Origin: Candidatus Omnitrophota bacterium
GTDB taxonomy: Bacteria; Omnitrophota; Gorgyraeia; Duberdicusellales; Duberdicusellaceae
Length of the DNA: 64,000 nucleotides
Direction: 5' to 3'
Assembly: GCA_021159015.1 (NCBI GenBank)
Contig: JAGGSQ010000069.1
Location: 1,332-65,331 of the forward strand
This document shows, one piece after another, positions 4,837 through 49,194 of the stretch. A program made the translations under genes and the position numbers. A model generated the notes under the pieces. The model was not told the DNA's origin. It did no database searches and was given only the letters and a program-made list of their open reading frames with translations. Numbering within the stretch: position 1 is the stretch's first letter; the number at the start of each line of letters is the position of its first letter.

Positions 4837-5655
4837 TTATACGACTTTTTCCTTTTTTATACAATGAGCAGGACATTTTTCTATAGCTATATTCATCGAG
4901 ACGGGATCTTGTATCTTTTCATAGTCCAAAGAAGAAAGGTTATTCTCTATAACAAAAGGGCTGTCTTTGATTATTTTCGTACATATCCCACCGCCAATGC
5001 ACCCCTCTGCACATTCTTTACGTACCTTTTGCGCTTCTTCCCGGTTATTGCACCCTACCCAGTAAAGATAACCCTCTCTTGTGTAATCTACAAGCTTTAA
5101 CACTCCCTGCGGACATACCGCTACACATTTTCCACAGCCAATACATTTGTGATAATCTACCTTCACTAGTCCCTTTTCTACTTTCAAGGCCCCTACGGGG
5201 CAGACCTTAACGCAATCACCCAGCCCCAAACAGCCATATTTGCAGTCATAAATCCCTCCCGCCAGCCTAGCCGACAAGCAGCTATTTACACCGCGCCAAT
5301 CAAAACTTCTCTTTTTGCTGCCTTCCTCGGCTGAGCACAACACAACTACTTTTTTGGCAGGAGCTTTTGCTGTTGCTTCAATACCTAAAAGTTCTCCTAT
5401 TTTTTTATTAACTGCATCACCTCCTGGAATACAGCCGCCGAAAAGCTTCTTTTCTCTCACCGCCGCTTCGGCAAAAGCTCGACACCCCGCAAAGCCACAG
5501 GCGCCGCAGTTTATGCCGGGAAGAACATCTAAAATTTTTTTTACCCGCTCATCTTGTTTTACCGCTAGAGTCCTATCGGCCAAAGAAAGAACCAGGCCAA
5601 AAAAAAGCCCCATAACCCCCAAACTGATAACTGATACCAACACCCTATCCATCAT
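4837..5655 (-). CDS. rnfB: Rnf electron transport complex subunit B (Fe-S cluster protein)
   Basis: N-terminal TM followed by the CGACGFAGCRAFAEA motif. Also carries 4Fe-4S ferredoxin motifs CIGCGKCVAVCP and CLGLGDCVKVCP. Confidence 0.9.
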   Translation of the reverse strand: MMDRVLVSVISLGVMGLFFGLVLSLADRTLAVKQDERVKKILDVLPGINCGACGFAGCRAFAEAAVREKKLFGGCIPGGDAVNKKIGELLGIEATAKAPAKKVVVLCSAEEGSKKRSFDWRGVNSCLSARLAGGIYDCKYGCLGLGDCVKVCPVGALKVEKGLVKVDYHKCIGCGKCVAVCPQGVLKLVDYTREGYLYWVGCNNREEAQKVRKECAEGCIGGGICTKIIKDSPFVIENNLSSLDYEKIQDPVSMNIAIEKCPAHCIKKEKVV

Positions 5656-6233
5656 CCGCTGATTAAACCGGAGAATCCCATAAAGGCCAAAGCCAATATC
5701 CCCGCCGTAATTAAAACAATAGGTGCGCCCTTGAAAGCAGCAGGAATATCAGAAAAATCCATCTCTTCTCTTATACCAGCCATAGCCACCAAAACCAGCA
5801 TAAACCCCAAGCCAGTGGCAAATCCGAATATTACTGACTGGACAAAATTATATTGGCGCAAAACCATAAATAACGCCAAGCCCAATATAGCACAGTTAGT
5901 AGTAATCAAAGGCAGGTATATTCCCAGAGCCTGGTAGAGAGGAGGGGAATATTTTTTTATAAACATCTCTACTATCTGCACTAAGGAAGCGATAACTAAG
6001 ATAAATACTACATACTCTAGAAACTCAATATGGAACCTGACCAGAATTAAATAATAAAACAGCCAAGTTATGGCAGCGGCTAGACTCATAACAAAAGTAA
6101 CCGCCATACCCATACCTAAAGAAGACTCCAGACGATTAGAAACTCCTAAAAAAGGACAAATGCCCAAAAAATAAGAAAGTACGAAATTGTTTACTAAGAC
6201 GGCACCAATAAAGATTAAAAAGATTTCTTTCAT
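5652..6233 (-). CDS. rnfA: Rnf complex subunit A
   Basis: MKEIFLIFIGAVLVNNFVLSYFLGICPFLGVS is the RnfA/NqrE family signature. Polytopic membrane protein, 193 aa. Confidence 0.9.
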   Translation of the reverse strand: MKEIFLIFIGAVLVNNFVLSYFLGICPFLGVSNRLESSLGMGMAVTFVMSLAAAITWLFYYLILVRFHIEFLEYVVFILVIASLVQIVEMFIKKYSPPLYQALGIYLPLITTNCAILGLALFMVLRQYNFVQSVIFGFATGLGFMLVLVAMAGIREEMDFSDIPAAFKGAPIVLITAGILALAFMGFSGLISG

Positions 6234-6832
6234 GTCTTAAAGCGTCTCTGTCTATCTAAAAAATTCATAAAAGCCACCACAAAACCTAAAGCAAAGAAGG
6301 CCCCCGCCGGAAGCAGCATAATAATCCAGGGCCGAAAATGTATGATGCCGAGTCTAAAACCAAAGATTGTCCCCCTTCCCAGAATCTCTCTCACAGCTCC
6401 TATTGCCATAAGCCCCCACATAAAGCCCAGGCTCATACCTAAAGCATCTAAGACTGAGTTGCCAACCGAATTGCGGGAAGCAAAGGCTTCCGCCCTTCCT
6501 AAAATAATGCAGTTTACCACGATTAGCGGCACATAAGGGCCAAGTGCGCGGCTGATTTGCGGAAAAAAGGCCTTCAAAGTAATATCAGCAATAGTAACAA
6601 AGGTAGCAATAATTATCGTGTAGACGGCAATTCTTACCTGATGAGGAATCAGACGTTTAATTAAAGCAACCATAAATGAAGAAAAAACCAGTACGAACAA
6701 AACCGCTGTCCCCATAGCAAAACCATTCCGCACTGATGTAGTTATAGCCAAGGTAGGACACATACCCAGAAGCTGGCGTAAATTAGGATGCTCTCTCCAC
6801 AACCCTGCTAAAAATATTGTCTTTTTGCTCAT
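6230..6832 (-). CDS. rnfE: Rnf complex subunit E
   Basis: LWREHPNLRQLLGMCPTLAITTS is the RnfE/NqrD signature. 200 aa, membrane protein. Confidence 0.9.
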   Translation of the reverse strand: MSKKTIFLAGLWREHPNLRQLLGMCPTLAITTSVRNGFAMGTAVLFVLVFSSFMVALIKRLIPHQVRIAVYTIIIATFVTIADITLKAFFPQISRALGPYVPLIVVNCIILGRAEAFASRNSVGNSVLDALGMSLGFMWGLMAIGAVREILGRGTIFGFRLGIIHFRPWIIMLLPAGAFFALGFVVAFMNFLDRQRRFKT

Positions 6833-7377
6833 GGTTGTAATATTTTTCTCACTTTAGTAATTTCCTTATTTAAGATTTCCACCACCGAGCGCGAAGAGAT
6901 AGTGGCTCCGCTAACAGCCTGAATCTCGTTATCCTGCCGGGACTTTCTCTTACTGTATACAATGCGGGGTAGCACCTTTATTCCCCGAAACTGTTTCTTA
7001 AACCAGTTGTCGTTAATATGTGCCCCCAGCCCCGGCGTTTCCGAAGAGGCAATTATCTCTATACCCAATATCTTCTCCAAATTTTTATCTAAACCGCAGA
7101 TTATCTTAATCTCGCCCTGATAGCCATAGCCTTTAGCTAAAAAAGCATAGCCAATTAAGTTTCCCTGTCCATCATAAAGCTTATAAATAGTCTTGCCTGC
7201 TGTTAATTTTTCTTCTACTTTTTTAGCTGCAGGGGCAACGACATATATAGCGCGTTCTATGGCTGCTTTCTCATTGTTCTCTATTCTGGCCTTAGCCAAA
7301 GAAGATACCAGACTCAAGCAAAATGCTGATATTAAAGATGTTACCAGTAAGACCAGAACTATCCTAAAATATTTCAT
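6829..7377 (-). CDS. rnfG: Rnf complex subunit G (FMN-binding)
   Basis: N-terminal TM and the C-terminal FMN-binding motif AVSGATISS. Confidence 0.85.
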   Translation of the reverse strand: MKYFRIVLVLLVTSLISAFCLSLVSSLAKARIENNEKAAIERAIYVVAPAAKKVEEKLTAGKTIYKLYDGQGNLIGYAFLAKGYGYQGEIKIICGLDKNLEKILGIEIIASSETPGLGAHINDNWFKKQFRGIKVLPRIVYSKRKSRQDNEIQAVSGATISSRSVVEILNKEITKVRKILQP

Positions 7378-8300
7378 CTCCCAAACGCTTTCTCTTTAGT
7401 CAAACGGTTAATCAAAGGCACAAAAGCATTCATAAAGAGAATAGAATACATCACTCCTTCTGGCAACCCACCCCATTTTCTGATTACCATCACCATTACG
7501 CCAATAAGAAAACCAAAGATAAATCTTCCCTTGCGGGTAGTGGGACTGGTTACCGGGTCAGTAACCATAAAGAAAGCTCCCAGCATTATCCCGCCCGCGA
7601 AAAGATGAAACAAAATTGAGCCATTCTGAGGGTTAAGGATTGACAAAATTCCGGCCAGAACACTTACTCCTATAAGCATACCCAAAGGCGCCCGCCAATC
7701 TGCAATTTTACGCCCGATGAGATAAAGACCGCCTATAATTAGGGCCAAAGCCGAAGTCTCTCCTAAACTTCCCGGGATATCTCCCAGGAAAAGATGCGAC
7801 AATTTTGTAAAAACATGATTGAACTTCCATAAAGCCAGAGGCGAAGCAGAAGTAACTGCATCCAGAGTATAAGGCTCAGTCCAACTGGTAAGAAGGGTAG
7901 GAAAAGAAGCTATTAAAAAAGCTCGTCCTACCAGAGCCGGATTAAATATGTTTTGACCCAGACCCCCAAATAATTGCTTACCTACCAAAATAGCCACCAC
8001 CGAACCCAGAAAGGCTACACTTAAAGGCAAAGCAGGAGGTAAAATTAAAGCCAGGAGGAGACCGGTAACTGTAGCACTTCCGTCCCAAAAGCGCTGGGGG
8101 CGGCGACGGAAAAACAGTACTGCTGCTTCGGTAAGATTAGTTCCTAAGACACAGACAGCAATTAATTTTACGGCAAGGAGTTTAAAGAAAATTATGGCGG
8201 CAAAACTTGGCGGCAGAAGAGCTATAACTACCTGCCACATTATATATTTCGTATCGTATCTCGCCTTCTGATGAGGGCTAATTTCTACTAAAAGTCTCAT
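7374..8300 (-). CDS. rnfD: Rnf complex subunit D
   Basis: NqrB/RnfD family with the TDPVTSP FMN-attachment motif. Polytopic, 308 aa. Confidence 0.9.
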   Translation of the reverse strand: MRLLVEISPHQKARYDTKYIMWQVVIALLPPSFAAIIFFKLLAVKLIAVCVLGTNLTEAAVLFFRRRPQRFWDGSATVTGLLLALILPPALPLSVAFLGSVVAILVGKQLFGGLGQNIFNPALVGRAFLIASFPTLLTSWTEPYTLDAVTSASPLALWKFNHVFTKLSHLFLGDIPGSLGETSALALIIGGLYLIGRKIADWRAPLGMLIGVSVLAGILSILNPQNGSILFHLFAGGIMLGAFFMVTDPVTSPTTRKGRFIFGFLIGVMVMVIRKWGGLPEGVMYSILFMNAFVPLINRLTKEKAFGR

Positions 8301-9622
8301 GCCAAACTTTTCAGTTTCGCCTTAGCTATTTTTATATAATTAACTAAGGGAATCTTCGCAGGACACACATAAGCACAATTGCCGCATTCAATACAGTCAG
8401 AAACATAGAATCTATCCAAGTCTTTCCACCTCTCTTTCTTTACCAGACGCACAAATTCCAAAGGCATAAGATTCATAGGGCAATTATCAACGCAACGGCC
8501 GCAACGAATACAAACATCTTCCGGCCTCTGATCGATATCAACCTCATCCATAAATAATACTCCTGAAGTCGTCTTAAGAATAGGATAATCCAGACAGTCA
8601 AGGCTCACGCCCATCATCGGCCCACCCATAATAACTTTGCGAGGCTGCTTTCTAAACTGAAGAATTCCTTTCTCAAAAAGCTCAGAAATTAAAGTTCCTA
8701 CGCGCAGACGGAGATTTTTCGGTTCTTTCAAACAAGAACCAGCAAAGGTAACTATTCTTTCAAAAAGCGGCTTGCCCAGATAGGTAGCTTCATAGATAGC
8801 AAAAGTTGTTGCTACATTCTGTACTAATACCCCCACGGAAAAAGGAAGGCCACCCGCCGGAACAATTCTTTTGGTAATATTATAAATAAGCTGCTTCTCC
8901 GCTCCCTGGGGGTAAGAAGATTTTAAAATCTTCACTTTGGCTCTAAAACCAAAGTCTTTGGTATTTATTTTATTATTAATCTTTCTAATAGCTTCCTTTT
9001 TATTATCTTCTATGGCGATAAAAACCTTACGGCAACTAAGAATCTTTACCAGTACTCCCACGCCGCGCAAAAGTTCTTCTGTATACTCAAGCATCAGGCG
9101 GTAATCACAACTCAAGTAAGGCTCGCATTCCGCCCCGTTAATTATTAAAACATCAATATTTTTGGGAGGCAGAAGCTTAATATGAGTAGGGAATCCTGCC
9201 CCACCCATACCCACAATGCCACTTTCCTTTACTATATTTACTAGGCTATCCCTTTCTAAATTCTCCTTTAAATCTCTTACTTCCCAGGCTTTTTCCTCTT
9301 TTAACTCTATGCCTCTAATTACTACCGCCGGAGCTTTAGCGAGAGTAGGATGATTAAAGATTTTGATGTCCTCTACTTTCCCCTCCCGGGAACTATGTAC
9401 CGCAGCGCTTACCTTAGCAGAAACTTGTCCTATAAGCTGACCTAATTTTAGTGCGTCACCTTTTTTAACTACTGCTTTAGCAGGAGCACCTATGTGTTGG
9501 GAAAGAGGAATGAATACTTTATCAGCTACATACGCCTCTATCTTCTGTTCTGCCTGAGGATATTTATAAGGGGCTACTTCTAACATTGTGCTTAATAAAT
9601 GAACTGGCAGAAAAAACGGCAA
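8297..9622 (-). CDS. rnfC: Rnf complex subunit C
   Basis: GMGGAGFPT NADH-binding motif and two 4Fe-4S motifs (CIRCGRCVDNCP, CIECGNCAYVCP). The start may be the internal MLEV at ~9586. The gene order rnfC-D-G-E-A-B is canonical. Confidence 0.9.
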   Translation of the reverse strand: MPFFLPVHLLSTMLEVAPYKYPQAEQKIEAYVADKVFIPLSQHIGAPAKAVVKKGDALKLGQLIGQVSAKVSAAVHSSREGKVEDIKIFNHPTLAKAPAVVIRGIELKEEKAWEVRDLKENLERDSLVNIVKESGIVGMGGAGFPTHIKLLPPKNIDVLIINGAECEPYLSCDYRLMLEYTEELLRGVGVLVKILSCRKVFIAIEDNKKEAIRKINNKINTKDFGFRAKVKILKSSYPQGAEKQLIYNITKRIVPAGGLPFSVGVLVQNVATTFAIYEATYLGKPLFERIVTFAGSCLKEPKNLRLRVGTLISELFEKGILQFRKQPRKVIMGGPMMGVSLDCLDYPILKTTSGVLFMDEVDIDQRPEDVCIRCGRCVDNCPMNLMPLEFVRLVKKERWKDLDRFYVSDCIECGNCAYVCPAKIPLVNYIKIAKAKLKSLA

Positions 9623-13245: not shown

Positions 13246-13809
13246 CTATTCTCTATGAGAAAATATAAGTCTTAACGCTTCTTGTCTTGTCTTAGAATTC
13301 CGGCGGAAAACCCCTCTTACCACAGAAGTCACAGTAAGACTGCCGGGTTTTTTTACCCCTCGCATAACCATACATAAATGTTCTGCTTCCACTACTACCA
13401 TAACCCCTTTAGGACTAAGTTTCTTCATTATAACATCCGCTATCTGAGTAGTAAGCCTTTCTTGCACCTGGAGGCGGCGTGCCAAAGTATCGGCCACCCG
13501 TGCCAGCTTGCTTAAACCAGTTATGCGGCTGTCCGGTATATAAGCTATATGCGCACGGCCAAAAAAAGGCAGAAGATGATGCTCACAAAGGGAATATATA
13601 GGTATATCTCTAACCAAAATTATTTCATCATGGCGTTGCTCTAAAATTACATTGATTTCGTCTTCTACTTTTTTCTCTTCTCCTTTCAATATCTCCGCAT
13701 ACATCTCTGCCACGCGCTGAGGCGTCTTGGCTAAATCTTTATTCTTCAAATCTTTGCCCAGCGCTAACAAAAGCATTTGGGTAGCTTTAACAATTGCCTT
13801 CTTATCCAT
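13246..13809 (-). CDS. folE: GTP cyclohydrolase I
   Basis: IPIYSLCEHHLLPFFGRAHIAYIP contains the CEHH zinc motif. 187 aa. Confidence 0.9.
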   Translation of the reverse strand: MDKKAIVKATQMLLLALGKDLKNKDLAKTPQRVAEMYAEILKGEEKKVEDEINVILEQRHDEIILVRDIPIYSLCEHHLLPFFGRAHIAYIPDSRITGLSKLARVADTLARRLQVQERLTTQIADVIMKKLSPKGVMVVVEAEHLCMVMRGVKKPGSLTVTSVVRGVFRRNSKTRQEALRLIFSHRE

Positions 13810-15179
13810 TATTTACCTATACAAAAATCTCTAAAGACCTGCTCCAGCACATCGGCATTCTTATATACACCTTGTATATTATACAGCTTCTCCACAGCAG
13901 CCTGAAGCAAAAAATATGTTTTATCTAAATTAAACTTCAAGTTTTCTTTAGCCTGCTTTAGATAAGATAAAGCCTCTTCCATAAGCTGCTGCTGGCGCAG
14001 ACTCCCTAGATATACTTCATTCTTATTCAAATTAGAAGCTGACAATCTCTTGACTATCATCTTTTCTAAACGAGAAATTCCTTCTTTGGTCTTGGCGGAA
14101 ACTCTCACCTGAGGAACTCTTATTTGTCTCATATAGGGGGAAGAAAGACGGGTCTTCAAATCACACTTGTTAATAACTAAAACAGAATTAGACTGGTGGC
14201 TACTAATAAATTCTTTTTCCTCTTTAGTTAAGGAAGAGGAATTATCAATTACCACTAGCAGAATATCAGCTTCTTTTATTATCTGCTGAGATTTATTTTG
14301 GGCTTTCTCTTCTAAAAAATCATTCTTCCGCCCCAGGCCGGCTGTATCTACTAACCGCAAAGTGTAACCGCCTAAATTAAATTCTTCCTCAATAGTATCG
14401 CGGGTAGTACCGGCTAAAGTACTCACTATAACTCTCTCCTTATCTAAAATAGCATTAAATAAAGAAGACTTTCCCACATTAACTCGGCCGCACAAAACAC
14501 ACCTAAACCCTTCATACCAGCGCCGCATAGTACGGCTGCCCTTAGCTAACTTCTCTATCTGGCCTATAATGCCTGAGAGTATTTTTTCTATATCTCCCCT
14601 CTCTAGCTCTATATCTTCCAGAGGAAAACCTATACTTGCCTGGAGAGTAGCTAACATTTTTTCCAGCTTCTTAATGAAAGAACTTAATTTCTGGGAGAGA
14701 CCTCCTTCTAACTGTCTCAAGCTTTGCCTCAGGGTCCAATCATTCTTAGCGCGTGAGATATTATTAATTGCTTCCGCTTGTATCAGGTCTATTCTTCCCA
14801 GAAGATAAGCCCGTTGGGTAAATTCGCCTGGTTCTGCCAGACGCGCTCCTGCTCTAAGTGCTAAATTTAAAACTTTATTAAGAACGGCTGGCCCCGAATG
14901 AGTGTATATTTCTACCACATCCTGACGCGTATAGCTATGAGGGGCTTTCATTATGCTTATTAATACTTCATCTACTATCTCGCCGCCAGATTTTATCCAT
15001 CCGTAATGAAGAGTGTAGGTTTTTGCTTTTCTAATATTTTTAGGGCGCGCGGGGGAAAAAACTCTGGCAGCAATATCCAAAGCCTTCCTGCCAGAAATCT
15101 TTATTATCCCAATTGCCGCTCTCTGAGGGAAAGTGGCTAAAGAAGCAATGGTATCGTCTAAATTGTATTTCTTTTGCAT
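13809..15179 (-). CDS. mnmE: tRNA uridine-5-carboxymethylaminomethyl modification GTPase
   Basis: G-domain motifs GRVNVGKSSLFNA, DTAGL and NKCD. C-terminal CIGK. N-terminal THF-binding-domain-like region. Confidence 0.9.
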   Translation of the reverse strand: MQKKYNLDDTIASLATFPQRAAIGIIKISGRKALDIAARVFSPARPKNIRKAKTYTLHYGWIKSGGEIVDEVLISIMKAPHSYTRQDVVEIYTHSGPAVLNKVLNLALRAGARLAEPGEFTQRAYLLGRIDLIQAEAINNISRAKNDWTLRQSLRQLEGGLSQKLSSFIKKLEKMLATLQASIGFPLEDIELERGDIEKILSGIIGQIEKLAKGSRTMRRWYEGFRCVLCGRVNVGKSSLFNAILDKERVIVSTLAGTTRDTIEEEFNLGGYTLRLVDTAGLGRKNDFLEEKAQNKSQQIIKEADILLVVIDNSSSLTKEEKEFISSHQSNSVLVINKCDLKTRLSSPYMRQIRVPQVRVSAKTKEGISRLEKMIVKRLSASNLNKNEVYLGSLRQQQLMEEALSYLKQAKENLKFNLDKTYFLLQAAVEKLYNIQGVYKNADVLEQVFRDFCIGK

Positions 15180-16513
15180 AATAGGACTCTTGCCTCAGCC
15201 ACCAAATAGGTTGAACCGGTTATCAATAATAGCCCGTCTCTACCCGCCAAACCAAAAGCCTGCTTTATTGCTTCTGAGAGATTAGAGGTAATAATTGCCT
15301 TTTTGATTTCCAGGCGCCTCTTAAGTTCAGAAGGAGTTAGAAGACGCATATGGGCAAGGTGAGGAAAAATTACTGCCTTTGCTTCCTTTAGCAATTGTTT
15401 GATTTTCCCAACTTTTTTATCGCGGGCCAGCGCAAAAATAACAATAAATTGCCTATGGTAATAACATTCTAAGTTGTGAAAAAGACGTTCTAAAGAGAAG
15501 CTATTATGAGCTATATCTAAAATAACCAGAGGTTTCCTCTTTACTATTTCCCAGCGGCCGGGAAGGGCAAGTTTTTCTAAAGCTATTTTTGCCGCGCCAG
15601 AGGAGAATTTTCTTTTATGTCTATGAAGAAAGACTTTTGCTGCGCCCAGAGCTAAAGCAGCATTTTCTACTTGATAGTCTCCCCTCTGCTTAAGAGAAAA
15701 AGGGCCGCATTTTTCCTTATTAAAAGAGAACCAGAAACGGCTCTGTTGCGGACTAATTTGCACGCGGGAGGGATAAAAATCCTGTCCTTGTATATATAAA
15801 GGTGCTTTGCGGGCAATGCTTATCTGGCGAATAACTTCTAAAGCCGCGGTATGATGTTGATTAGTTAATACCGCTCCTCCTTCTTTTATGATACCAGCTT
15901 TAGCCTGAGCAATAGAGATTAGGGTGTGGCCTAATATCTCTTCATGGTCGTAATCAATTGGAGTAATTACGGCTAATTCATTTTGCGGGGATACATTAGT
16001 AGCGTCTAACTTTCCTCCTAAACCTGTCTCCAGTACTGCCAGGTTTACCTTCTTCTTCTGGAAATAATAAAAACCTAAAGCCGTAATCAATTCAAAAAAA
16101 CTAAGTCCCCTGCCTTTAGAAGAATAGTAAAAGCTCATAACGGCTTGAGAATAACGATGCCAGAACTCAGAAATATCTCTTGGGGAGATACATAAGTTTT
16201 TTATCTCTCCCTTTCTATAATAAACTATCCTTATTCTTTCCCGCCAGATAGAAAGATGTGGCGAAGTAAAAAGCCCTACCTTTAAGTGGTGAGCGCTCAA
16301 AATAGAGGCAAGAAAAATAGCTACTGATCCTTTACCTTTTGTACCGGCTATCTGGACTAAGCACAAAGAAGAGGGACTGAGCTTAAGCGTTTTCAATAAC
16401 TGCCGCAGACGCTGAAGCTTTAAGGAAGCAAGTTTGAATCTATCTCGCTGCTTTTCGTAATTTACTAACGCTTCCAAAAAGGACATTGCCTGTTTATAAT
16501 ACGATTTTCCCAC
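15158..16513 (-). CDS. folC: bifunctional folylpolyglutamate synthase / dihydrofolate synthase
   Basis: The Mur ligase family P-loop GTKGKGS. 451 aa. Confidence 0.85.
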   Translation of the reverse strand: MGKSYYKQAMSFLEALVNYEKQRDRFKLASLKLQRLRQLLKTLKLSPSSLCLVQIAGTKGKGSVAIFLASILSAHHLKVGLFTSPHLSIWRERIRIVYYRKGEIKNLCISPRDISEFWHRYSQAVMSFYYSSKGRGLSFFELITALGFYYFQKKKVNLAVLETGLGGKLDATNVSPQNELAVITPIDYDHEEILGHTLISIAQAKAGIIKEGGAVLTNQHHTAALEVIRQISIARKAPLYIQGQDFYPSRVQISPQQSRFWFSFNKEKCGPFSLKQRGDYQVENAALALGAAKVFLHRHKRKFSSGAAKIALEKLALPGRWEIVKRKPLVILDIAHNSFSLERLFHNLECYYHRQFIVIFALARDKKVGKIKQLLKEAKAVIFPHLAHMRLLTPSELKRRLEIKKAIITSNLSEAIKQAFGLAGRDGLLLITGSTYLVAEARVLLCKRNTI

Positions 16514-16904
16514 TTTGGATAAACCTTCTTATTTTTACGTCCAGCGGCGCAAAATTAACTGCTGAGAGTTCTTTTGGGGTAATAAATCTGAAACTCGCAC
16601 ATTCTCTTGCTTCTATTTTTCCTCCCTTTAAAAAACAACGGTAAAGATGCACCTTTATTTTTATCTCCTCGTTCTCATCAAAAAATACTCCCAAAGGCTC
16701 GCCTACTTCTATTTCTATATTAAGCTCCTCTTTAATCTCGCGCTTCAAAGCCTGCCAATGGCTTTCTCCTCTCTCTACCCTTCCTCCCGGAAACTCCCAT
16801 AAAAGTCCATAGCTATCTTTTGCCTCGCGCTGAGCAATAAGAATCTTCCCCGCATGAACCAATAAACATGCTACTATTTCTAAAATCTCTTTGGCTTTCT
16901 TCAT
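16494..16904 (-). CDS. NUDIX hydrolase (MutT-like)
   Basis: Nudix box GGRVERGESHWQALKREIKEELNIE (GX5EX7REUXEEXGU). Confidence 0.85.
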   Translation of the reverse strand: MKKAKEILEIVACLLVHAGKILIAQREAKDSYGLLWEFPGGRVERGESHWQALKREIKEELNIEIEVGEPLGVFFDENEEIKIKVHLYRCFLKGGKIEARECASFRFITPKELSAVNFAPLDVKIRRFIQSGKIVL

Positions 16905-16913
16905 AGAGAAATA

Positions 16914-18437
16914 TTAATGACGGAAATGACGTAGCGAGGTAAAAATCATAGAAAGATTCAGCTTGTCGGCTAACTTAATCAAATCTTTGTCCTTAAGCGA
17001 ACCTCCTGGCTGGATTAAAGCTTTAATTCCCGCAGATTTTGCTAATTCCAGATTGTCTTCCTTAGGGAAAAAACCGTCAGAAGCTAATACCGCTCCCTGC
17101 GTAGACTGACAAGATTTTCTGATGGCGATTTCCATAGCGCCAATGCGCGAAGGCTGGCCGCAGCCAATCCCTAAAGTCCTAAGGTTTTTAGCTACGACAA
17201 TAGCGTTGGACTTTGTATATTTGGCTACAAACCAAGCGAAAAGCAAATCTTCTATTTCTCTCGCCGTAGGCTTTTTTTTGGTTACAATCTGAAGCTTATG
17301 ATTATCTATAACCAATAAATCTTCTTCCTGAATTAAATAACCAAATGCGGTTTTTCTTATTTGTTGATTCGAGTTATGCTTCTTAAAATCAGCCTTAATC
17401 AAACGCAGATTCTTCTTTTCTCTCAATATATCTAAAGCTTCCCGGCTAAATCCCGGCGCTATTACCGCTTCTCGAAATCCACTTCTTATAACAGCTCTTG
17501 CCGTTTTCTCATCTACTTCCTTATTAAGGCCGATGATTCCTCCAAAACTGGAAAGGGCATCGCTCATAAAAGCCTTCCGGTAAGCTAAAACCAGATTGCC
17601 GGCCAGAGCTACGCCGCAGGGATTACCATGTTTTATTACGCAAGCGGCAGGCAATCTTTTAAAATAACGCACTAAAGACAGAGCTGCATCCAAATCCAGG
17701 AAATTGTTGTAAGAGAGCTCTTTGCCGCCTAATTGTTCAAAACTTACCTCGCCGCCGATTTTGTAGAGAGCAGCTTTCTGTTGAGGATTCTCGCCGTAGC
17801 GCAAAGAGTGATGTCTCCTAAAAACAACCTTTTTTGTCTCCTTATTAGACGCGGCCAGAAACTCAGCAATGGCAGAATCATACTGACTGACAAATGCGAA
17901 TGCTTCGCCGGCCAGCTTCTTTCGCAAAGCTAAAGACAGCTTCCCCCTTTCTCCCACTAATTCCCCCGCCACCATTTTATATTGGGAAGGACTACTAATT
18001 ACGGCTACGGACTGAAAATTTTTTGCCGCAGCGCGCAACATAGTAGGCCCGCCGATATCAATATACTCCTGCATCTGCTCCAGAGTAAGATTCTCGCGCC
18101 GTTTTTCTAGAAAAGGATAAAGATTTACTACCACCAAATCAAAAGGAGATATGCCTATTTTCTTAAGCTCGGCCATATGACGCGCATCATCTTTACGCGC
18201 TAAAATTGCGGCATGAATCAGAGGATGGAGCGTCTTTACTCTACCTCCTAACAATTGAGAAAACCCTGTTATCTTCTCTATATTTTGGGCTTTTATGCCT
18301 CTTGCTTCCAGAAAACGCCATGTGCCTCCGCTAGAATAAATCTCTATGTTAAATTTCGCCAAAGTCTGGCAAAAATCCCCTAAACCCCTTTTATCCCAAA
18401 CGCTCACTAAGGCTTTTTTAATCTCCAGATTCATCAT
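16914..18437 (-). CDS. purH: bifunctional AICAR transformylase / IMP cyclohydrolase
   Basis: N-terminal MGS-like domain (ALVSVWDKRGL...SSGGT) followed by the AICARFT domain. 507 aa. Confidence 0.9.
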   Translation of the reverse strand: MMNLEIKKALVSVWDKRGLGDFCQTLAKFNIEIYSSGGTWRFLEARGIKAQNIEKITGFSQLLGGRVKTLHPLIHAAILARKDDARHMAELKKIGISPFDLVVVNLYPFLEKRRENLTLEQMQEYIDIGGPTMLRAAAKNFQSVAVISSPSQYKMVAGELVGERGKLSLALRKKLAGEAFAFVSQYDSAIAEFLAASNKETKKVVFRRHHSLRYGENPQQKAALYKIGGEVSFEQLGGKELSYNNFLDLDAALSLVRYFKRLPAACVIKHGNPCGVALAGNLVLAYRKAFMSDALSSFGGIIGLNKEVDEKTARAVIRSGFREAVIAPGFSREALDILREKKNLRLIKADFKKHNSNQQIRKTAFGYLIQEEDLLVIDNHKLQIVTKKKPTAREIEDLLFAWFVAKYTKSNAIVVAKNLRTLGIGCGQPSRIGAMEIAIRKSCQSTQGAVLASDGFFPKEDNLELAKSAGIKALIQPGGSLKDKDLIKLADKLNLSMIFTSLRHFRH

Positions 18438-19114
18438 ACGCTAAATTTTATTTCGATAACATCCCCATCTTCTACTACATAATCTCTATCTACGCTTTTT
18501 ACTAAACCTTTGACTCTGGCTTCAGCCATATTGAACACTTTCAAGAGCTCTGCGCAGTTAATGACTTCCCCCTTTATAAAGCCACGTGCCAGATCACTAT
18601 GAATTTTAGCCGCGGCCTTCAATATGTTTTCGCCCCGGCGCAGCGACCAGGCATGAACTTCTTTGGGACCGGCGGTATAAAAAAGGAGAAATCCCGACTG
18701 CTCAAAAATCTGACCTATTACCTCTTTTTCATCCTCCCCTTTCTCAATCTCCACACAAGGACGTAGACTGAGCAAATTTAAATCACGCACCCTCTCTTTC
18801 TCCTCAGGGCTAAGCACTTCTGCAAGCAATTTGTTCTGTTCTAAGGCTGTCTGGAGCTTAACTAACAGCTTTTTTTCTTCTTCCCCGGCTTTGGAAAGGC
18901 GTTTCTCTATTAGGTCTAAATCGTTAATAATTAAATCTATCTTCCTCTCTTTACTATAGGCGATAACATCAGCACCAGAAAGATGAGAAATAATCTCAAT
19001 AAAGTAAGGGGAGGTTTTTTTGGGTTTGTATTTCTCTGCTAACTTTTGAAAACACTCTGTGGTATATTTATATTTTCCCGCCGCAATATCCAGGCCTAAA
19101 GAGGCAACTTTCAT
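18434..19114 (-). CDS. YchF-like protein with a degenerate, shortened G domain (coiled-coil and TGS domains intact)
   Basis: C-terminal TAGPKEVHAWSLRRGENILKAAAKIHSDLARGFIKGEVI...DYVVEDGDVIEIKFSV aligns to the YchF TGS domain. The middle region, LSPEEKERVRDLNLLSLRPCV, also matches YchF. The N-terminus has GLDIAAGKY in place of GxxxxGK[ST] and EIIS in place of the DxxG motif. About 30 aa spanning switch I are missing. The start overlaps the EF-G paralog stop as ATGA. Confidence 0.7.
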   Translation of the reverse strand: MKVASLGLDIAAGKYKYTTECFQKLAEKYKPKKTSPYFIEIISHLSGADVIAYSKERKIDLIINDLDLIEKRLSKAGEEEKKLLVKLQTALEQNKLLAEVLSPEEKERVRDLNLLSLRPCVEIEKGEDEKEVIGQIFEQSGFLLFYTAGPKEVHAWSLRRGENILKAAAKIHSDLARGFIKGEVINCAELLKVFNMAEARVKGLVKSVDRDYVVEDGDVIEIKFSV

Positions 19115-21147
19115 GCTTCTTTCTTCTTAGCTGCTTCTACAATGCTCTGGGTAATACGCTGCGGCACTATTTCGTAATGAGAAAAACTCATTAAATAACT
19201 ACCGCGTCCGCCAGTCACCGAACGCAAGTCTGAAGCATAACTAAACATTTCAGAAAGAGGAACCTGTGCTTTTACTACCTGCTTTGTACCCTTGGCTTCC
19301 ATTCCTAAAACACGACCGCGGCGAGAGTTTATGTCTCCGGTTATCTGGCCCATAAATTCTTCCGGCACGGTAATTTCTACATTCATTATTGGCTCCAACA
19401 TAACCACGCCTGCTTGCTCCATAGCTTTTTTAAATGCCATACTCCCTGCAATCTGAAAAGCCATATCTGAGGAGTCCACGGGATGATAAGAACCATCAAA
19501 AAGGGTCACTTTTATATCTACCAAAGGGTAACCGGCCAAAAATCCTTCCTCCATAGCTTTACGAATCCCCTTTTCCACTGAAGGTATAAAATTACGCGGT
19601 ATTCTGCCACCTACAATCTTATCTACAAATTCAAAATCTTTGCCTCTCTCCAAAGGCTCCACTTCAATCCACACATCGCCATATTGACCATGTCCTCCTG
19701 TCTGCTTTTTATATTTGCCCTGTACTTTTGCCGCTTTAGTAATTGTCTCTTTATAAGGGACCTTGGGGCGGCCCAAAGTTACCTCAGCCGAAAACCTTTC
19801 CTTCAGACGCCCAATTATGATATTAATATGTAGTTCTCCTGTGCCGGAAATTATCAGTTCTTTAGTCTGTGTATCGCGTGACACCCGCAAGGTAGGGTCT
19901 TCCAGAGTGAGTTTAGTTAAAGCCTGCGAAATCTTATCTTCATCCTGCCGTGTCTTAGGCTTAATGGAAGCCGAATAAGTAGGAACAGGAAATACCAGTC
20001 GTTCAAACAACACCTTAAAGGACTCCTCCGCCAGAGTATCTGAAGTTACCGCATTTTTTAATTTAGCTACTGCGGCTATATCCCCACAACTAACCACTTC
20101 CCTTGCCTGCTGTTCTTTACCTTGCAAGACAAAAATCTGGCTAAAACGCTCTTTAGTTTTTTGGCTCTGATTATAGAAAGTACTGTTGGGGGAGATCTTA
20201 CCGGAAAACACTCTAAATATACTTAGCTGCCCTACATAGGGATCAAATATGCTCTTTATTACCTGAGCCGCAAAGGGGCCGTCTGCTTTGGATTCTACTA
20301 ATATTTCCTTTCCTTCAGAATCTTTAACCTTTAGAGGCAAACGGTCACTAACCGCAGGCATAACTTCTGTCAACACCTGCAACAAAAGCTCTATGCCCAC
20401 ACCCGAAAGAGCATTTCCGGCTAAAACCGGAAAAAGCTGGCGTTGACGCACGGCTCTATTTAAGGCAGACAAAACCTCTTTAGGCTCCAGGCTACCTTTA
20501 TCCAAGTATTTCTCCAGAAGCGCATCGTCACTTTCTGCTACTATATCTACAATCTGAGAATAGAACTCTTCAAAACCTTTTTTCTCCTCTGCTCCCAAAG
20601 AATCCTTTTTGCTGCTATCAATTATACTCACTACATCTTTAAATGCGGTACCTTTTCCTAAAGGCAAGACTAAGCTTGCGGCTTTCTTAGTCAAATTATT
20701 TTTAATATCCTTTAGACATTGGCTAAAGTCTGCTTCTTCTTTATCCAACTTATTAATAAAAAATAAACAGGGAAGATTTTCTTTCTCAATTATTTCCCAG
20801 GCTTTTTCTGTTCCCACTTCTACTCCCGATGCCGCATCTACTACTATCACGGCAAAATCGCTCCCTCTCACCGCAGCAATTATTTCTCCTACAAAGTCCA
20901 GGTAGCCTGGCGTATCGATAAATTGTAAAGAATAATTTTTGTATTTACAGTTGAGAAAAGAAGCGTTTATGGAACTCTTCCTTTCTATTTCGTCTTTCTC
21001 ATAATCACTCACCGTATTGCCCTCATCTACTTTACCCCAGCGAGTGGTTGCGCCGCTCTGGTACAAAATAGCCTCAGCTAAAGACGTCTTACCGCATTGA
21101 GCATGACCGGCTAACATAAACACTCTTTTCTTATCCAATTCTGCCAT
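19111..21147 (-). CDS. elongation factor G family GTPase (EF-G paralog)
   Basis: G1 AGHAQCGKTS, G3 DTPGYLDF, G4 NKLD. Five-domain EF-G length (678 aa). The G1 motif deviates from the canonical AHIDAGKT. Confidence 0.85.
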   Translation of the reverse strand: MAELDKKRVFMLAGHAQCGKTSLAEAILYQSGATTRWGKVDEGNTVSDYEKDEIERKSSINASFLNCKYKNYSLQFIDTPGYLDFVGEIIAAVRGSDFAVIVVDAASGVEVGTEKAWEIIEKENLPCLFFINKLDKEEADFSQCLKDIKNNLTKKAASLVLPLGKGTAFKDVVSIIDSSKKDSLGAEEKKGFEEFYSQIVDIVAESDDALLEKYLDKGSLEPKEVLSALNRAVRQRQLFPVLAGNALSGVGIELLLQVLTEVMPAVSDRLPLKVKDSEGKEILVESKADGPFAAQVIKSIFDPYVGQLSIFRVFSGKISPNSTFYNQSQKTKERFSQIFVLQGKEQQAREVVSCGDIAAVAKLKNAVTSDTLAEESFKVLFERLVFPVPTYSASIKPKTRQDEDKISQALTKLTLEDPTLRVSRDTQTKELIISGTGELHINIIIGRLKERFSAEVTLGRPKVPYKETITKAAKVQGKYKKQTGGHGQYGDVWIEVEPLERGKDFEFVDKIVGGRIPRNFIPSVEKGIRKAMEEGFLAGYPLVDIKVTLFDGSYHPVDSSDMAFQIAGSMAFKKAMEQAGVVMLEPIMNVEITVPEEFMGQITGDINSRRGRVLGMEAKGTKQVVKAQVPLSEMFSYASDLRSVTGGRGSYLMSFSHYEIVPQRITQSIVEAAKKKEA

Positions 21148-21225
21148 AAAACCCTCCTAATGTTTTAAGCTGAGTTTTAATTATAGTAAAAATAAGTAGA
21201 GGCGTCAAACAAAAAGCTTTAGCTT

Positions 21226-21960
21226 TTAAAGAGGCTCGTGAGATACTGAGCTTATTTTCATATTTCCCCAAAGGCCAATTTGACTGTCCTTAACAATATA
21301 AATTCCTTCTATCCCTTCAAAACGGCGTCCGTAGGCTAAAGCCTTTTTTATATCACAAGGCGCTTTTACCATATTAGCCAGGCGCGTGCTGAGCCCATCG
21401 GACAAAATCGCCGAGCGGCTTACTACGGTAACCAAATCCGCCTGCCCCAGACTAAGGCTATGCCCGAAGGTAGAAGAAGAAGAACAAATGCCTAAAGGAT
21501 AGTCCCTTTCCTCCAGAACTAACACTACACGACTTAAGGAATTATGCGTTACTACCAAAGGTTGTATGAATATAGGTCCTTTTTTCGCCAGGAATATATC
21601 GCCGCCGTTCTCAACGATAAATTGAGGAGTCTGTTTTAAAAGCTCACGCCCCGAAAATTCGGCGATTGCCCCGGCTACCGTAGCTAAAGGGCCAATATCC
21701 AAAAGTTGAGATACAGCCAGCATTTCTTTCACTAAAGGATATTTTGTCTCTATTTCCAGGGGCGAAAGAGAAGTAGCAAAAGCAGGGTATTTCTCTACAA
21801 TTTCAGCTACCTGGTTATAATATTTCTGTATTATTTCCTGGGCGCAGTTGTCTAAAGGACGAGAAGAATAAATCACAACATCGGCTTCGTTTACCATCAC
21901 GCGGCAGGAAAAGAAGTTTTCCTTATTCAGGTAATTACGATAGAATCTCTCCTCATACAT
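21226..21960 (-). CDS. hypothetical protein, possibly UPF0280/ApbE-like family
   Basis: DIGPLATVAGAIAEFSGRELL...ENGGDIFL resembles the ApbE/UPF0280 GPMAAVAGA...NGGDI pattern. The family assignment is from memory only. Confidence 0.5.
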   Translation of the reverse strand: MYEERFYRNYLNKENFFSCRVMVNEADVVIYSSRPLDNCAQEIIQKYYNQVAEIVEKYPAFATSLSPLEIETKYPLVKEMLAVSQLLDIGPLATVAGAIAEFSGRELLKQTPQFIVENGGDIFLAKKGPIFIQPLVVTHNSLSRVVLVLEERDYPLGICSSSSTFGHSLSLGQADLVTVVSRSAILSDGLSTRLANMVKAPCDIKKALAYGRRFEGIEGIYIVKDSQIGLWGNMKISSVSHEPL

Positions 21961-22625: not shown

Positions 22626-23642
22626 TTAATATATCACCTTACTAAAATCTAATTCGTTTTTCTCCAGTTTCTCTGCCAGCGCTTTTACCCGCAAAAGCCG
22701 CTCGGTAGTGGTAGGATGATCGGCCAATAAAGAAGCGTTAAGGCTCTGAGGCAGCTCTATAGCAAAGCGTTCCCAGATCTCAATGCCTCTTTTTACATTG
22801 AACCCTCCCAGATAAGCAAAGATGACTCCGAAATAATCCGCCTCCCGTTCAAAATCCCGCGAGAATTTGGCATTAAATATACCACCCAACTGCCGACCGA
22901 TTTCTCCTCCTTGAGGAATATTCTGAGACAGGCCCCAATGAACCAGCGCGGCCAATAACCCTAATCCCTGACGTTTAAGCAGGTGCCCTTTAGCAATATG
23001 CGCCATCTCATGTCCTATTACTACCGCCAGCTCATCGTCGTTTTTTACAAAATTGAGCAGGCCGTAAGTAACCACCACTACACCTTCTCCCGCGGCAGCA
23101 TTTACCGCCTCAGAAGGAACAGTGCCAAAACGGACAAAATAACCCATCTTAAGCGGCCGGCATAAAAGGTTTACGGTTTCTTCCCCTCTTTTTACCTTCA
23201 AGCGCCATAGCTTTCTTTGCTTTTCTTTTATAAGCCAGCGGTAGTAATCCCCAACTCCGGAAAGAGCATGATTATTAATTTTAAGAATAATATCGCCTGT
23301 TTTTACGCCTGCCTCCGCCGCGGGCGAGCCGGGCACTACTCCGTAAACAACTGCCCCTTTGTCCGAAGGCAGAGACAATACGGCTTGAATATCTTTATTA
23401 TTGTCGGCAACTAAAGCACCTATATAGTTATAGTTAAGCCCCCGCCGCGGGCGCAGGGATTTTAATATCCTGAACCCGATGTTATTGACCCGCAGGTCCT
23501 TCTGCATACGGTAGTAAAGGGCTTTGCGGCGCAGCTGAGTCTCCGTCTGCTGAAGTGCCTGCTGCGAAGGATAAGGTCCTACCGTAACACAACCGGATAG
23601 AGACAAAAAAATAAAGACACTAAAGCTTCTTAAGAAATTCAT
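22626..23642 (-). CDS. M48-family zinc metallopeptidase with a PDZ domain (lipoprotein)
   Basis: HEMAHIAKGH (HEXXH) with a downstream E. PDZ-like GVKTGDIILKINNHAL. Signal peptide with an LSLSGC lipobox. Confidence 0.8.
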   Translation of the reverse strand: MNFLRSFSVFIFLSLSGCVTVGPYPSQQALQQTETQLRRKALYYRMQKDLRVNNIGFRILKSLRPRRGLNYNYIGALVADNNKDIQAVLSLPSDKGAVVYGVVPGSPAAEAGVKTGDIILKINNHALSGVGDYYRWLIKEKQRKLWRLKVKRGEETVNLLCRPLKMGYFVRFGTVPSEAVNAAAGEGVVVVTYGLLNFVKNDDELAVVIGHEMAHIAKGHLLKRQGLGLLAALVHWGLSQNIPQGGEIGRQLGGIFNAKFSRDFEREADYFGVIFAYLGGFNVKRGIEIWERFAIELPQSLNASLLADHPTTTERLLRVKALAEKLEKNELDFSKVIY

Positions 23643-24309
23643 AACCTATACCAATATCTACAACTACTGCCTCTCCCCAATAGGATTTAGTCGTAGGATA
23701 TAAAAGAGTGCGTTTGGGAGTAACAAAAGTTATAGTTAAATCGGCTTTTACCGCTGTATCTACTTCTCTTGAGTCGGCACTAAGGCCTGAGGGTATATCA
23801 AGAGAAACTACTCTGGCTTCTGCTTGATTTATTATCTCAAAAATATTACGGTAAAAAGGATGCAGGGGAAGATGAAAATTTATTCCGAAAATGCCATCAA
23901 TTACCACCTCTGTTTTTTTGAGTGCTTGTTTTAGCTTCCTGAGCGAAGCAGAGCTACCCAAATAAACAGGTGTAACCCTAAAGACTTTCTGCAGCACACT
24001 AAGCTCAAACTTAACCTGCGTGTTAACATCACTTCTTGCAGCTGCTATGAAAACTTTTGCCTTTTTGCCCGCATTCATGAGGTGGCGACAGGAAGCCAAA
24101 GCATCTGCCCCGTTATTGCCTTTTCCAGCAACAACTACGCATGTCTTAAATTTAAAGCGGCTGAGAATTACCCTACTCGCGCCCCGGCTGGCATTCTCAA
24201 TTAACAGCAACTCCGGCAAAAAACGTTTTGCCTTCTTGTCCAAACGGCGGACTTCGGCTTGCGTCAGATAAGGAATCTTGAGAGAATATTTCTGGTTTTG
24301 TCCAGGCAT
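23620..24309 (-). CDS. nnrE: NAD(P)H-hydrate epimerase (stand-alone YjeF-N domain)
   Basis: VVAGKGNNGADALA is the YjeF_N signature. I placed the start at MPGQNQ (ATG 24309). The ORF-track N-terminal extension overlaps the upstream gene and is not family-like. Confidence 0.75.
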   Translation of the reverse strand: MPGQNQKYSLKIPYLTQAEVRRLDKKAKRFLPELLLIENASRGASRVILSRFKFKTCVVVAGKGNNGADALASCRHLMNAGKKAKVFIAAARSDVNTQVKFELSVLQKVFRVTPVYLGSSASLRKLKQALKKTEVVIDGIFGINFHLPLHPFYRNIFEIINQAEARVVSLDIPSGLSADSREVDTAVKADLTITFVTPKRTLLYPTTKSYWGEAVVVDIGIGYEFLKKL

Positions 24310-24424
24310 AATAAAAGAGTATTTAGATCTATAGTATATCTCATTTTTTTTCTTCCTGTCAATTCTTCTTGCACTTTTAAGAAGGAGGTTTAAAATAGTT
24401 GAGAAAGCTAAAAAGGAGGAAAAA

Positions 24425-24742
24425 ATGCCAGAGTTTGCAAGTCCCTTTTCCGGTCTTACCCCCGCAAAGAAACTAAGCAGCGAAGAATTGATCCGGGCCA
24501 TCCGCTTCATGGTAGCAGCAGAATACGAAGCCGTACAGATGTATATGCAGGTGGCAGAATCAACCGATAACAAATTAGCAAAAGCAGTACTAAAAGATAT
24601 CGCCGACGAAGAAAAAGTTCATGCAGGAGAGTTTTTGCGCCTTTTAAAGGCTCTAGAGCCGGAAGAAGAAAAGTTTTATCAAGAAGGCGCAGAAGAGGTA
24701 GAAGAAGAAATTAAAAAGACCGGCCGAAAAGGAAAATTTTAG
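24425..24742 (+). CDS. small ferritin-like/rubrerythrin-like diiron-domain protein
   Basis: AAEYEAV...DIADEEKVHAGEF matches the E...EExxH half-site pattern. An AGGAGG RBS sits 6 nt upstream. 105 aa, one of the few plus-strand genes. Confidence 0.6.
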   Translation: MPEFASPFSGLTPAKKLSSEELIRAIRFMVAAEYEAVQMYMQVAESTDNKLAKAVLKDIADEEKVHAGEFLRLLKALEPEEEKFYQEGAEEVEEEIKKTGRKGKF

Positions 24743-44396: not shown

Positions 44397-45266
44397 TTAG
44401 GTTAAATATGAGGCAGCCTGATAAGAGCTTCTTACCCAGGGAGAGCTTTTTACGGCTTTAAATCCCATTGTTTCCGCTATCTCTCTCCATTTATCAAATT
44501 CTTGGGGGTGGACATATTGCTGCACGGGAACATGACGGAAGGAAGGTGCCAAATATTGTCCCAGGCTCAGGAAATCACATCCTACCCCTCGTAAATCCTC
44601 CAAAACTTTGATAACTTCCTCTTTTGTTTCTCCTAACCCTAACATAAGCCCTGACTTAGTGCAGAGATGAGGATTTATTTTTTTTAAATAGGCAAGTACT
44701 TCTAAAGAACGCCGGTAGACAGCTTCGGGACGCAACCTTTTATAAAGCGAAGGGACCGTTTCTATATTGTGCCCGATAACTTCTGCCCCGCTTAAAGCAA
44801 CTTTTTCTAGCGCCTGGCGGTTAAACAAAAAATCAGGTATTAAGAGCTCTACTTTTATGGTTTTGTCTATCTGTTTTATCAAACTTACACAACGAGAGAA
44901 TATTTCTGCACCTCCATCCGCTAAGTCATCACGGCTGACGCTGGTAAGCACTACATAATGCAGTCCGAGTTCGGCCACACACTTCTTTATTCTCTCCGGC
45001 TCTTCCGGATCCAGCCGGCCGGGTTTACCTTTCCCCACATTACAAAAACGGCAGTGGCGGGTACAGACATCACCCAAAAGCAGAAAAGTAACTTCTCCTG
45101 CTCTGAAACACTCGCCTATGTTAGGACACCTTGCTTCCTCACATACGCTATGCAAATTCCAACGGCGCAACGTCTGCTTCATATAGCGCAACAGGTCTAG
45201 ATTTACCGGTTTCCGCAGCCAATCTGGTTTAAGGTAATTTAGTCTCGCGACAGTAATTCCATTCAT
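44397..45266 (-). CDS. lipA: lipoyl synthase
   Basis: CEEARCPNIGEC (auxiliary cluster) and CTRHCRFC (rSAM cluster). C-terminal VRSSYQA. Confidence 0.9.
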   Translation of the reverse strand: MNGITVARLNYLKPDWLRKPVNLDLLRYMKQTLRRWNLHSVCEEARCPNIGECFRAGEVTFLLLGDVCTRHCRFCNVGKGKPGRLDPEEPERIKKCVAELGLHYVVLTSVSRDDLADGGAEIFSRCVSLIKQIDKTIKVELLIPDFLFNRQALEKVALSGAEVIGHNIETVPSLYKRLRPEAVYRRSLEVLAYLKKINPHLCTKSGLMLGLGETKEEVIKVLEDLRGVGCDFLSLGQYLAPSFRHVPVQQYVHPQEFDKWREIAETMGFKAVKSSPWVRSSYQAASYLT

Positions 45267-48817: not shown

Positions 48818-49194
48818 TAGTGTTCCTGGGCAATAAAACTACGGTAATCCTGAGGAGAAAGTAGTTCTTCCAGTTGAGTTTTATCCTCTATCTCTATTTC
48901 CACCAGCCATCCTTCTCCTTCGGGATCTTGATTGACCAGCGCCGGATTATCGATAACCGCCTGATTAACCGCAACTATCTTCCCTGCCAGAGGCAGAAAA
49001 AGTTCACTCACCGATTTAGTAGATTCAATCGTCCCGAACTGTTCGGCTTTATGAAACTCCTTCCCAACATCAGGAAGCTCCAAAAAAACAATATCTCCCA
49101 ATTCCTTCTGAGCATAATCACTAACCCCTACACGCGCCCGACTGCCTTCTTGCACTTCCACCCATTCATGACTCTTAGAATAAAGCTTAGCCAT
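48817..49194 (-). CDS. gcvH: glycine cleavage system H protein (lipoyl carrier)
   Basis: The lipoyl-lysine motif ESTKSVSELF. 125 aa. Confidence 0.9.
   Translation of the reverse strand: MAKLYSKSHEWVEVQEGSRARVGVSDYAQKELGDIVFLELPDVGKEFHKAEQFGTIESTKSVSELFLPLAGKIVAVNQAVIDNPALVNQDPEGEGWLVEIEIEDKTQLEELLSPQDYRSFIAQEH

Follow-up and report, generated by a model that had tools for sequence, protein, structure and literature searches.

We analysed a window of 64,000 nucleotides (nt) of the Candidatus Omnitrophota contig JAGGSQ010000069.1 (positions 1,332 to 65,331), the minus strand of which carries an EF-G family gene and, overlapping its stop codon, a gene for a short relative of the ribosome-associated ATPase YchF, referred to here as short YchF or mini-YchF. 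A first-pass annotation had singled out this pair, and both open reading frames (ORFs), the ATGA overlap at 19111-19114, and the strings GLDIAAGKY, EIIS, and AGHAQCGKTS on which it relied were all found to be present. The two genes and their immediate signals, with the basis of each call, are as follows (aa, amino acids).

21180..21208, minus strand: promoter-like site TTGACG-17-TATAAT, 11/12 matches (consensus match only)
21153..21158, minus strand: Shine-Dalgarno sequence AGGAGG, 5 nt 5' of the EF-G ATG (sequence)
19111..21147, minus strand: EF-G family gene, 678 aa (ORF call, Pfam and NCBIfam)
19111..19114, minus strand: ATGA overlap of the short-YchF start codon with the EF-G stop codon (sequence)
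18434..19114, minus strand: short YchF ("mini-YchF"), 226 aa plus stop (Pfam and NCBIfam, alignments, AlphaFold model)
18434..18437, minus strand: ATGA overlap of the purH start codon with the short-YchF stop codon (sequence)

The short YchF was recognized by PF06071 (YchF-GTPase_C/DUF933) over residues 144-224, with 94.8 bits against a cutoff of 27, and by PF02824 (TGS); no other Pfam domain was matched there. Against the YchF equivalog model TIGR00092 it scored 102.4 bits, below the cutoff of 279.2, and thus falls outside that model. HMMER comparisons showed that the protein is collinear with solved YchFs: residues 19-42 correspond to OLA1 70-93 (a weak match), residues 70-125 to E. coli YchF 164-223, and residues 142-226 to the YchF TGS domain (2dby, 8kie, and 1jal), with TGS identities of ~45-53%. 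The AlphaFold2 model had a predicted local distance difference test (pLDDT) score of 94.8 and a predicted template modeling (pTM) score of 0.86. All of the top 15 Foldseek matches to this model were YchF/OLA1 structures (query-normalised TM-scores of 0.73-0.84), including E. coli YchF on the 50S subunit (8kie). The protein divides into four parts.

18953..19114, minus strand: residues 1-54, G-domain core remnant (strands 2-6, 13-17, 33-42, and 50-53 and helix 20-29 in the model; alignment)
18785..18952, minus strand: residues 55-110, helical (coiled-coil) domain (helices 55-73 and 78-92 in the model; matches E. coli YchF 164-223)
18692..18784, minus strand: residues 111-141, last G-domain strand (120-122) and linker helix (129-139) (model, alignment)
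18437..18691, minus strand: residues 142-226, TGS/YchF C-terminal domain (Pfam, PDB matches, family alignment)

With YchF/OLA1 (TIGR00092; 1jal, 2dby, 2ohf, 5ee0, and 8kie), an Obg-family ribosome-associated ATPase, the short YchF shares three lobes in the order core sheet, inserted helical hairpin, and C-terminal TGS. It differs in its length, in the tip of the hairpin, and in the absence of G1-G5. When the short forms were aligned using MAFFT with canonical YchFs taken from the fetched loci, five internal, in-frame deletions were seen, at the same places in all members of the short family.

Deletion 1: ~28 residues, covering the P-loop, helix 1, and switch I
Deletion 2: ~25 residues, covering DxxG (DIAG/DTPG), switch II, and helix 2
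Deletion 3: ~22 residues, after strand 4
Deletion 4: ~9-13 residues, at the tip of the helical hairpin
Deletion 5: ~66 residues between the helical domain and the linker helix, covering G4 and G5

The loss of GTPase motifs that the first-pass annotation had proposed was borne out by this alignment and is more radical than claimed. The protein is a YchF derivative that cannot be a nucleoside triphosphatase, and it is 137 residues shorter than the 363-aa YchF, not shorter by the roughly 30 G-domain residues that had been estimated. The Walker A motif GxxxxGK[ST] and helix 1 are missing, and GLDIAAGKY (residues 7-15), which had been taken for an altered P-loop, is wrongly spaced and has no Ser/Thr; its conserved GK is no P-loop remnant, being part of a predicted beta-strand whose counterpart in the alignment is YchF strand 2. 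EIIS does occur, at residues 40-43; the alignment shows the DxxG/switch II region to be deleted. The G3 DxxG and the switch II helix are thus absent, as are G4 (NxxE/NKxD) and G5. As judged from the sequence, the short YchF was shown to be without a P-loop or any other element able to bind ATP or GTP. The coiled-coil and TGS domains, both described earlier as kept, were both found, with the qualification that the tip of the helical hairpin is ~9 residues shorter than in YchF and non-basic (mean net charge of -0.3 in the short family vs +2.3 in canonical YchFs). The TGS domain is the best-conserved part of the family and contains 12 invariant residues (F145, T147, E152, W156, A168, I171, H172, D174, L175, G178, F179, and G203).

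A search of 5.8 billion proteins recovered >120 full-length short-form clusters of 228-231 aa with 41-69% identity, the named members of which are Candidatus Omnitrophica/Omnitrophota proteins that NCBI calls only "DUF933 domain-containing protein." When 1.84 billion representatives were searched with a profile, ~45 clusters of short forms (225-235 aa) were found at the 50% identity level, full-length YchFs ranked only after these, and the named members of the divergent short-form clusters were again Omnitrophota. Genome and metagenome scans added members from a metagenome-assembled genome (MAG) of the Planctomycetes-Verrucomicrobia-Chlamydiae (PVC) group, from Fibrobacterota, Chitinispirillaceae, and Chitinivibrionales MAGs, and from one Endomicrobiia MAG. 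In a neighbour-joining tree of the shared columns, all 108 canonical sequences formed one clade that excluded all 44 short forms, which is consistent with a single origin of the short forms, neighbour-joining being a crude method.

A short form and a canonical YchF were found side by side on a 7.4-kb metagenome contig (Ga0364919_10657; locus L127). The short form there (233 aa, 4992-5693) is separated by 18 nt from a canonical 372-aa YchF (5712-6830) with GLPNVGKST and DIAGLV motifs, and the tandem sits between purC/nrdR and crcB. The closest relatives of this canonical YchF are from Kiritimatiellia and Verrucomicrobiota. The short form thus coexists with YchF in at least one PVC lineage and, because L127 carries both, can be a paralog; the tandem points to a duplication of ychF as the likely origin of the short family. 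A tandem of this kind as a general feature of Kiritimatiellia was rejected, being absent around P0488 and P0549. A second candidate for co-occurrence, the P0264 short form with the P0488 canonical YchF on one contig (22,168 bp), was taken as chance; 16.3 kb of it was read and held no short form.

The full-length proteins nearest to the short-family profile were, where named, from Thermovirgaceae and Thermodesulfobium; none was identified as Omnitrophota, and they are uninformative on the YchF of that phylum. The 348-aa Thermodesulfobium YchF homologue also bears the NCBI name "DUF933 domain-containing protein." A distinct full-length YchF-like subfamily of 341-351 aa was seen in Pirellulaceae MAGs and metagenomes (L048, L055, L159, L160, and L162; e.g., L048:9668-10693). 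It has the P-loop GYQGSGKST and DTPGL in place of DIAGL, and only its TGS motif DLARGF is given as common to it and the short family.

All five EF-G domains were identified by Pfam in the 678-aa protein encoded upstream, which carries the motifs G1 AGHAQCGKTSL, G2 ERKSSI, G3 DTPGY, and G4 NKLD and an intact domain IV tip (GGHGQYG and SYHPVDSS). The catalytic His of DTPGH is replaced by Tyr, as in 20/20 sampled Omnitrophota orthologues, and the hydrophobic-gate isoleucines are absent. Where canonical EFG I has AHIDAGKT, RGITI, and DTPGH, the window EF-G has GHAQCGKT, RKSSI, and DTPGY. The defining features of EFG II are a P-loop with Gly and Leu (GHxxxGKT) and a Ser where RGITI has Thr (Margus et al. 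2011, PMC3150367); Gly for Ala in G1 and Leu at the last P-loop position were present in all sampled orthologues, and G2 carries the Ser. The AGHAQCGKTS string, described by the first-pass annotation as an atypical G1, is therefore no peculiarity of this gene and is a hallmark of EFG II common to Thermus EF-G-2.

Model scores and structural matches gave a composite picture. The best NCBIfam model was NF009381 (PRK12740.1-5, "elongation factor G"; 892 bits, cutoff 583), whereas the EF-G2 equivalog NF009377 (PRK12740.1-1) reached 607 bits against a cutoff of 890. The N-terminal G domain alone matched Thermus EF-G-2 (1wdt) best, sharing GHAxxGKT.L and PGYxDFVGEI, whereas over the full length Thermus EF-G-1 was the best PDB match (601 bits, compared with 468 bits for 1wdt). 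When domain II, in which Thr291, Gly333, and Lys352 (1wdt numbering) are specific to EFG II, was used as the query, 1wdt was not among the matches at E<=1e-5; this domain resembles canonical EF-G, and domains II-V as a whole look canonical. The window EF-G thus resembles the EFG II/EF-G2 proteins (Thermus EF-G-2, Mycobacterium smegmatis EF-G2, and PRK12740) in G1, the G2 Ser, DxPGY, and the five-domain architecture. It differs from them in being nearer to canonical EF-G overall and in domains II-V, in falling below the NF009377 cutoff, and in its unusual conservation within the phylum. Its motifs point to an EFG II-like member of the PRK12740 group, an EF-G paralog type and not classical fusA, in agreement with what had been proposed earlier for the upstream partner.

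The Tyr substitution has precedents. The same His-to-Tyr change occurs in M. smegmatis EF-G2, and an H88Y mutation in EF-G1 nearly abolishes ribosome-dependent GTPase activity (preprint 10.64898/2026.05.25.727771). The window EF-G also matches Bacteroides EF-G2 (7uvp/8dmf), an EF-G paralog with an altered GTPase centre, at 448 bits; against the Bacteroides EF-G2 model NF058620 it scored 555 bits, far under the cutoff of 1000. Bacteroides EF-G2 works without GTP hydrolysis.

Pairing of the two genes was assessed at 42 informative loci, that is, loci of the short-YchF family with >=2.1 kb of upstream sequence. EF-G lay directly upstream of the short YchF in 11 of these, with gaps of -7, -4, -4, -4, -1, -1, 3, 135, and 152 nt in the paired loci, and the remaining 31 had unrelated upstream neighbours (e.g., LptD or a transposase, and gltX in CP070684.1). 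The order (queA)-EF-G-short YchF-purH-folC-mnmE-folE was kept within one Omnitrophota clade, with synteny of the block seen in L001, L081-L084, L087-L092, L105, and L136. In the complete Omnitrophota genome CP070684.1 (1.275 Mb), EF-G follows queA at ~490 kb and the short YchF follows gltX at ~378 kb, placing them >100 kb apart, and in CP070807.1 EF-G is followed by lipB; the EF-G orthologues of both genomes have kept queA upstream and not the short YchF downstream. The adjacency of EF-G and short YchF is real, moderately conserved, and lineage-specific, and is part of a larger housekeeping block. In CP070684.1 the next ORF after EF-G (L178:10002-10154) encodes a 51-aa fragment with an MGS domain, resembling what is left of a purH, and a gene for a 1759-aa protein comes after it; this suggests that a rearrangement or an insertion broke the EF-G/short-YchF/purH block there.

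The first-pass annotation had read the pair as a specialised translation-factor module, perhaps for stress or ribosome rescue, and the ATGA overlap as translational coupling. Under such a scheme the short YchF would be a partner or cofactor of the EF-G2-like factor, the two being produced in fixed proportion by translational coupling; for example, it might retain the 50S subunit once EF-G2 has assisted in splitting, or it might adjust EF-G2 activity on ribosomes that are stalled or hibernating. The 11 adjacent loci include short proteins spanning 38-52% identity, the genes overlap or nearly abut in most of them (-7 to 3 nt), both proteins come from ribosome-binding families, and E. coli YchF promotes subunit splitting with ATP or AMPPNP alike (PMC11814078). 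However, we consider a dedicated module unlikely. EF-G is not upstream in 31/42 loci, the genes are >100 kb apart in CP070684.1, EF-G stays with queA and not with short YchF in that genome and in CP070807.1, and the short YchF is joined just as tightly to purH. Overlaps are also the norm in the window genome: 32 of 51 same-strand neighbouring pairs in the window overlap, and 10 of the 51, including short YchF/purH, do so by 4 nt, so the ATGA overlap of EF-G and short YchF is nothing special. Because of the low frequency of adjacency, the separation in CP070684.1, and the routine nature of 4-nt overlaps, a dedicated two-gene module is left unsupported.

It is rather unlikely that these are divergent housekeeping factors, that is, the only YchF and the only EF-G of this lineage in unusually modified form. 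Omnitrophota genomes with these genes can be small (1.28 and 1.82 Mb), the EF-G is strongly conserved and preceded by a near-consensus promoter-like site and AGGAGG, and it marginally passes TIGR00484 (663.8 bits, cutoff 659.4) with canonical-like domains II-V, all of which would fit such a role. Canonical ychF or fusA was not found in the 64-kb window or in the 10 kb beyond each of its ends, which says little because these 84 kb are only a few percent of a genome. EFG II, however, has not been found as the sole EF-G, EFG I being, in the published view, indispensable unless it is replaced by an spdEFG pair (PMC3150367); the His-to-Tyr change nearly abolishes GTPase activity in a canonical EF-G; and the short form occurs together with a canonical YchF in L127. 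The phylum-wide version of this idea, in which mini-YchF is the only YchF-family protein of Omnitrophota and the Tyr-type EF-G possibly their only EF-G, appears quite improbable. Were it true, the ATPase activity of YchF would be dispensable, its conserved core function would reside in the helical and TGS parts, the label "universally conserved ATPase" would need qualifying, and a whole phylum would be translocating with an EF-G that has no catalytic histidine.

That the 226-aa ORF is an artefact or a decaying, truncated or frameshifted ychF pseudogene, as its short length and low equivalog score might suggest, is refuted by the conservation of its length and sequence across hundreds of sequences (>120 clusters of 228-231 aa), the internal in-frame deletions shared at the same places by all members, and its compact and confidently predicted fold, and its probability is negligible. 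An upstream frameshift restoring the G domain, raised in the earlier annotation as a point to check, is likewise impossible, because an in-frame stop lies 4 codons 5' of the ATG and the DNA upstream is taken up by EF-G coding sequence, whose conserved C-terminal part can be aligned with Thermus EF-G as far as residue ~671, so that no room is left for missing sequence.

We therefore favour, as probable, the reading in which mini-YchF is a functional paralog derived from YchF/OLA1 that binds RNA or the ribosome independently of nucleotide, the EF-G is of the EFG II/EF-G2 kind, and their pairing is clade-specific synteny. Mini-YchF would represent an old, conserved family that originated from YchF/OLA1 when all of the nucleotide-binding apparatus was lost. 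The parts left, a small scaffold of beta-sheet, a helical hairpin that has become shorter, and a TGS domain that is fully conserved, are held in the three-lobed arrangement of YchF. It would most likely act as a constitutive, nucleotide-independent RNA- or ribosome-binding factor, presumably using features it has in common with YchF, namely its TGS domain and the cleft that separates the helical lobe from the TGS lobe. Its status as a paralog is the best reading because at least one lineage carries canonical YchF beside it; as such, it may provide the "binding half" of YchF function or compete for the same site, and the L127 tandem also raises the possibility that it competes with or regulates canonical YchF. 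The EF-G, which keeps its GTP-binding motifs and an intact domain IV tip, should bind the ribosomal factor site; with Tyr for the catalytic His and no hydrophobic-gate isoleucines, its GTP hydrolysis would be expected to be poor or different, like that of EF-G2 proteins.

What is known of E. coli YchF gives this proposal a setting. On the 50S subunit, E. coli YchF contacts uL14, bL19, and H62 at the subunit interface, mainly through its helical domain, and binding depends chiefly on the Lys-rich helical tip, which contacts H62 (PMC11814078). Since subunit splitting works with either ATP or AMPPNP, a hydrolysis-free version of YchF is conceivable. The E. coli YchF site adjoins that of RsfS, and splitting is favoured without hydrolysis (PMC11814078); by functional analogy only, a nucleotide-free YchF could act as a passive factor of the RsfS/eIF6 anti-association type. 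The short YchF has no relationship to those factors in sequence or fold, and its helical tip differs from that of YchF.

Several points weigh against the favoured reading. Canonical YchF and the short form were found together in only one contig, which is not from Omnitrophota. The ribosome link of the short form would follow by analogy from the parts common to YchF, and its binding mode may differ because the Lys-rich tip is shortened and roughly neutral. The EF-G orthologues are 57-70% identical across the phylum, which is more conserved than usual for EFG II, the whole protein is nearer to Thermus EF-G-1 than to EF-G-2, and TIGR00484 is passed, if marginally; this EF-G could be the main EF-G of its lineage. 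Finally, Thermus EF-G-2, which also has the Tyr, is reported, in work cited in PMC3150367, to be an active GTPase and translocase, so that a loss of activity in the window EF-G is an uncertain prediction.

YchF/OLA1 is nearly universal, yet its cellular role is a matter of continuing debate, and the phylum-wide conservation of its helical and TGS parts on a minimal scaffold argues for a function that is independent of hydrolysis. The mini-YchF family would thus offer a natural separation-of-function variant for ribosome-binding and structural studies. Databases give it only the DUF name, and our literature search found no description of a truncated or pseudo-YchF, nor of YchF in Omnitrophica. 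The window EF-G extends an already known paralog group by one member, an incremental addition to the poorly understood EF-G2 proteins, among which it is well conserved and canonical-looking.

The short YchF is followed by a run of co-directional genes.

13246..18437, minus strand: co-directional block 3' of short YchF (Pfam and synteny)
16914-18437, minus strand: purH (Pfam)
16494-16904, minus strand: NUDIX (Pfam)
15158-16513, minus strand: folC-like Mur ligase (Pfam)
13809-15179, minus strand: mnmE (Pfam)
13246-13809, minus strand: folE (Pfam)

EF-G, short YchF, purH, folC, mnmE, and folE probably share a transcript that starts from a promoter 5' of EF-G, and the translation of EF-G and short YchF may be coupled. 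The promoter-like site falls within the 78-nt gap 5' of EF-G and, together with the AGGAGG, is compatible with one transcript running into the purine, folate, and tRNA-modification genes; the total of promoter-like sites in the region was not above the shuffled expectation. Rfam matches in the window were three tRNAs only, with no riboswitch or other RNA element near the operon. Directly 5' of the promoter-like site lies a 244-aa ORF (21226-21960, minus strand) for which Pfam gave no match at E<=1e-5; queA takes its place in other Omnitrophota.

Elsewhere in the window, positions 4837-9622 hold a six-gene operon for an Rnf-type complex (Pfam) with five consecutive 4-nt start/stop overlaps. A 105-aa ORF (24425-24742) is the sole plus-strand ORF amid a long minus-strand gene run and overlaps the N-terminus of a YjeF_N gene (23620-24573), which is probably over-extended, its domain beginning only at residue 124. 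The ORF contains EYEAVQMY and EEKVHAGEF and, by eye only, may resemble ferritin/rubrerythrin. Glycine-cleavage and lipoate genes, identified by eye from the translations, form one co-directional cluster at 44397-50298 and, with purH, folC, and folE, give the window a strong one-carbon/folate flavour.

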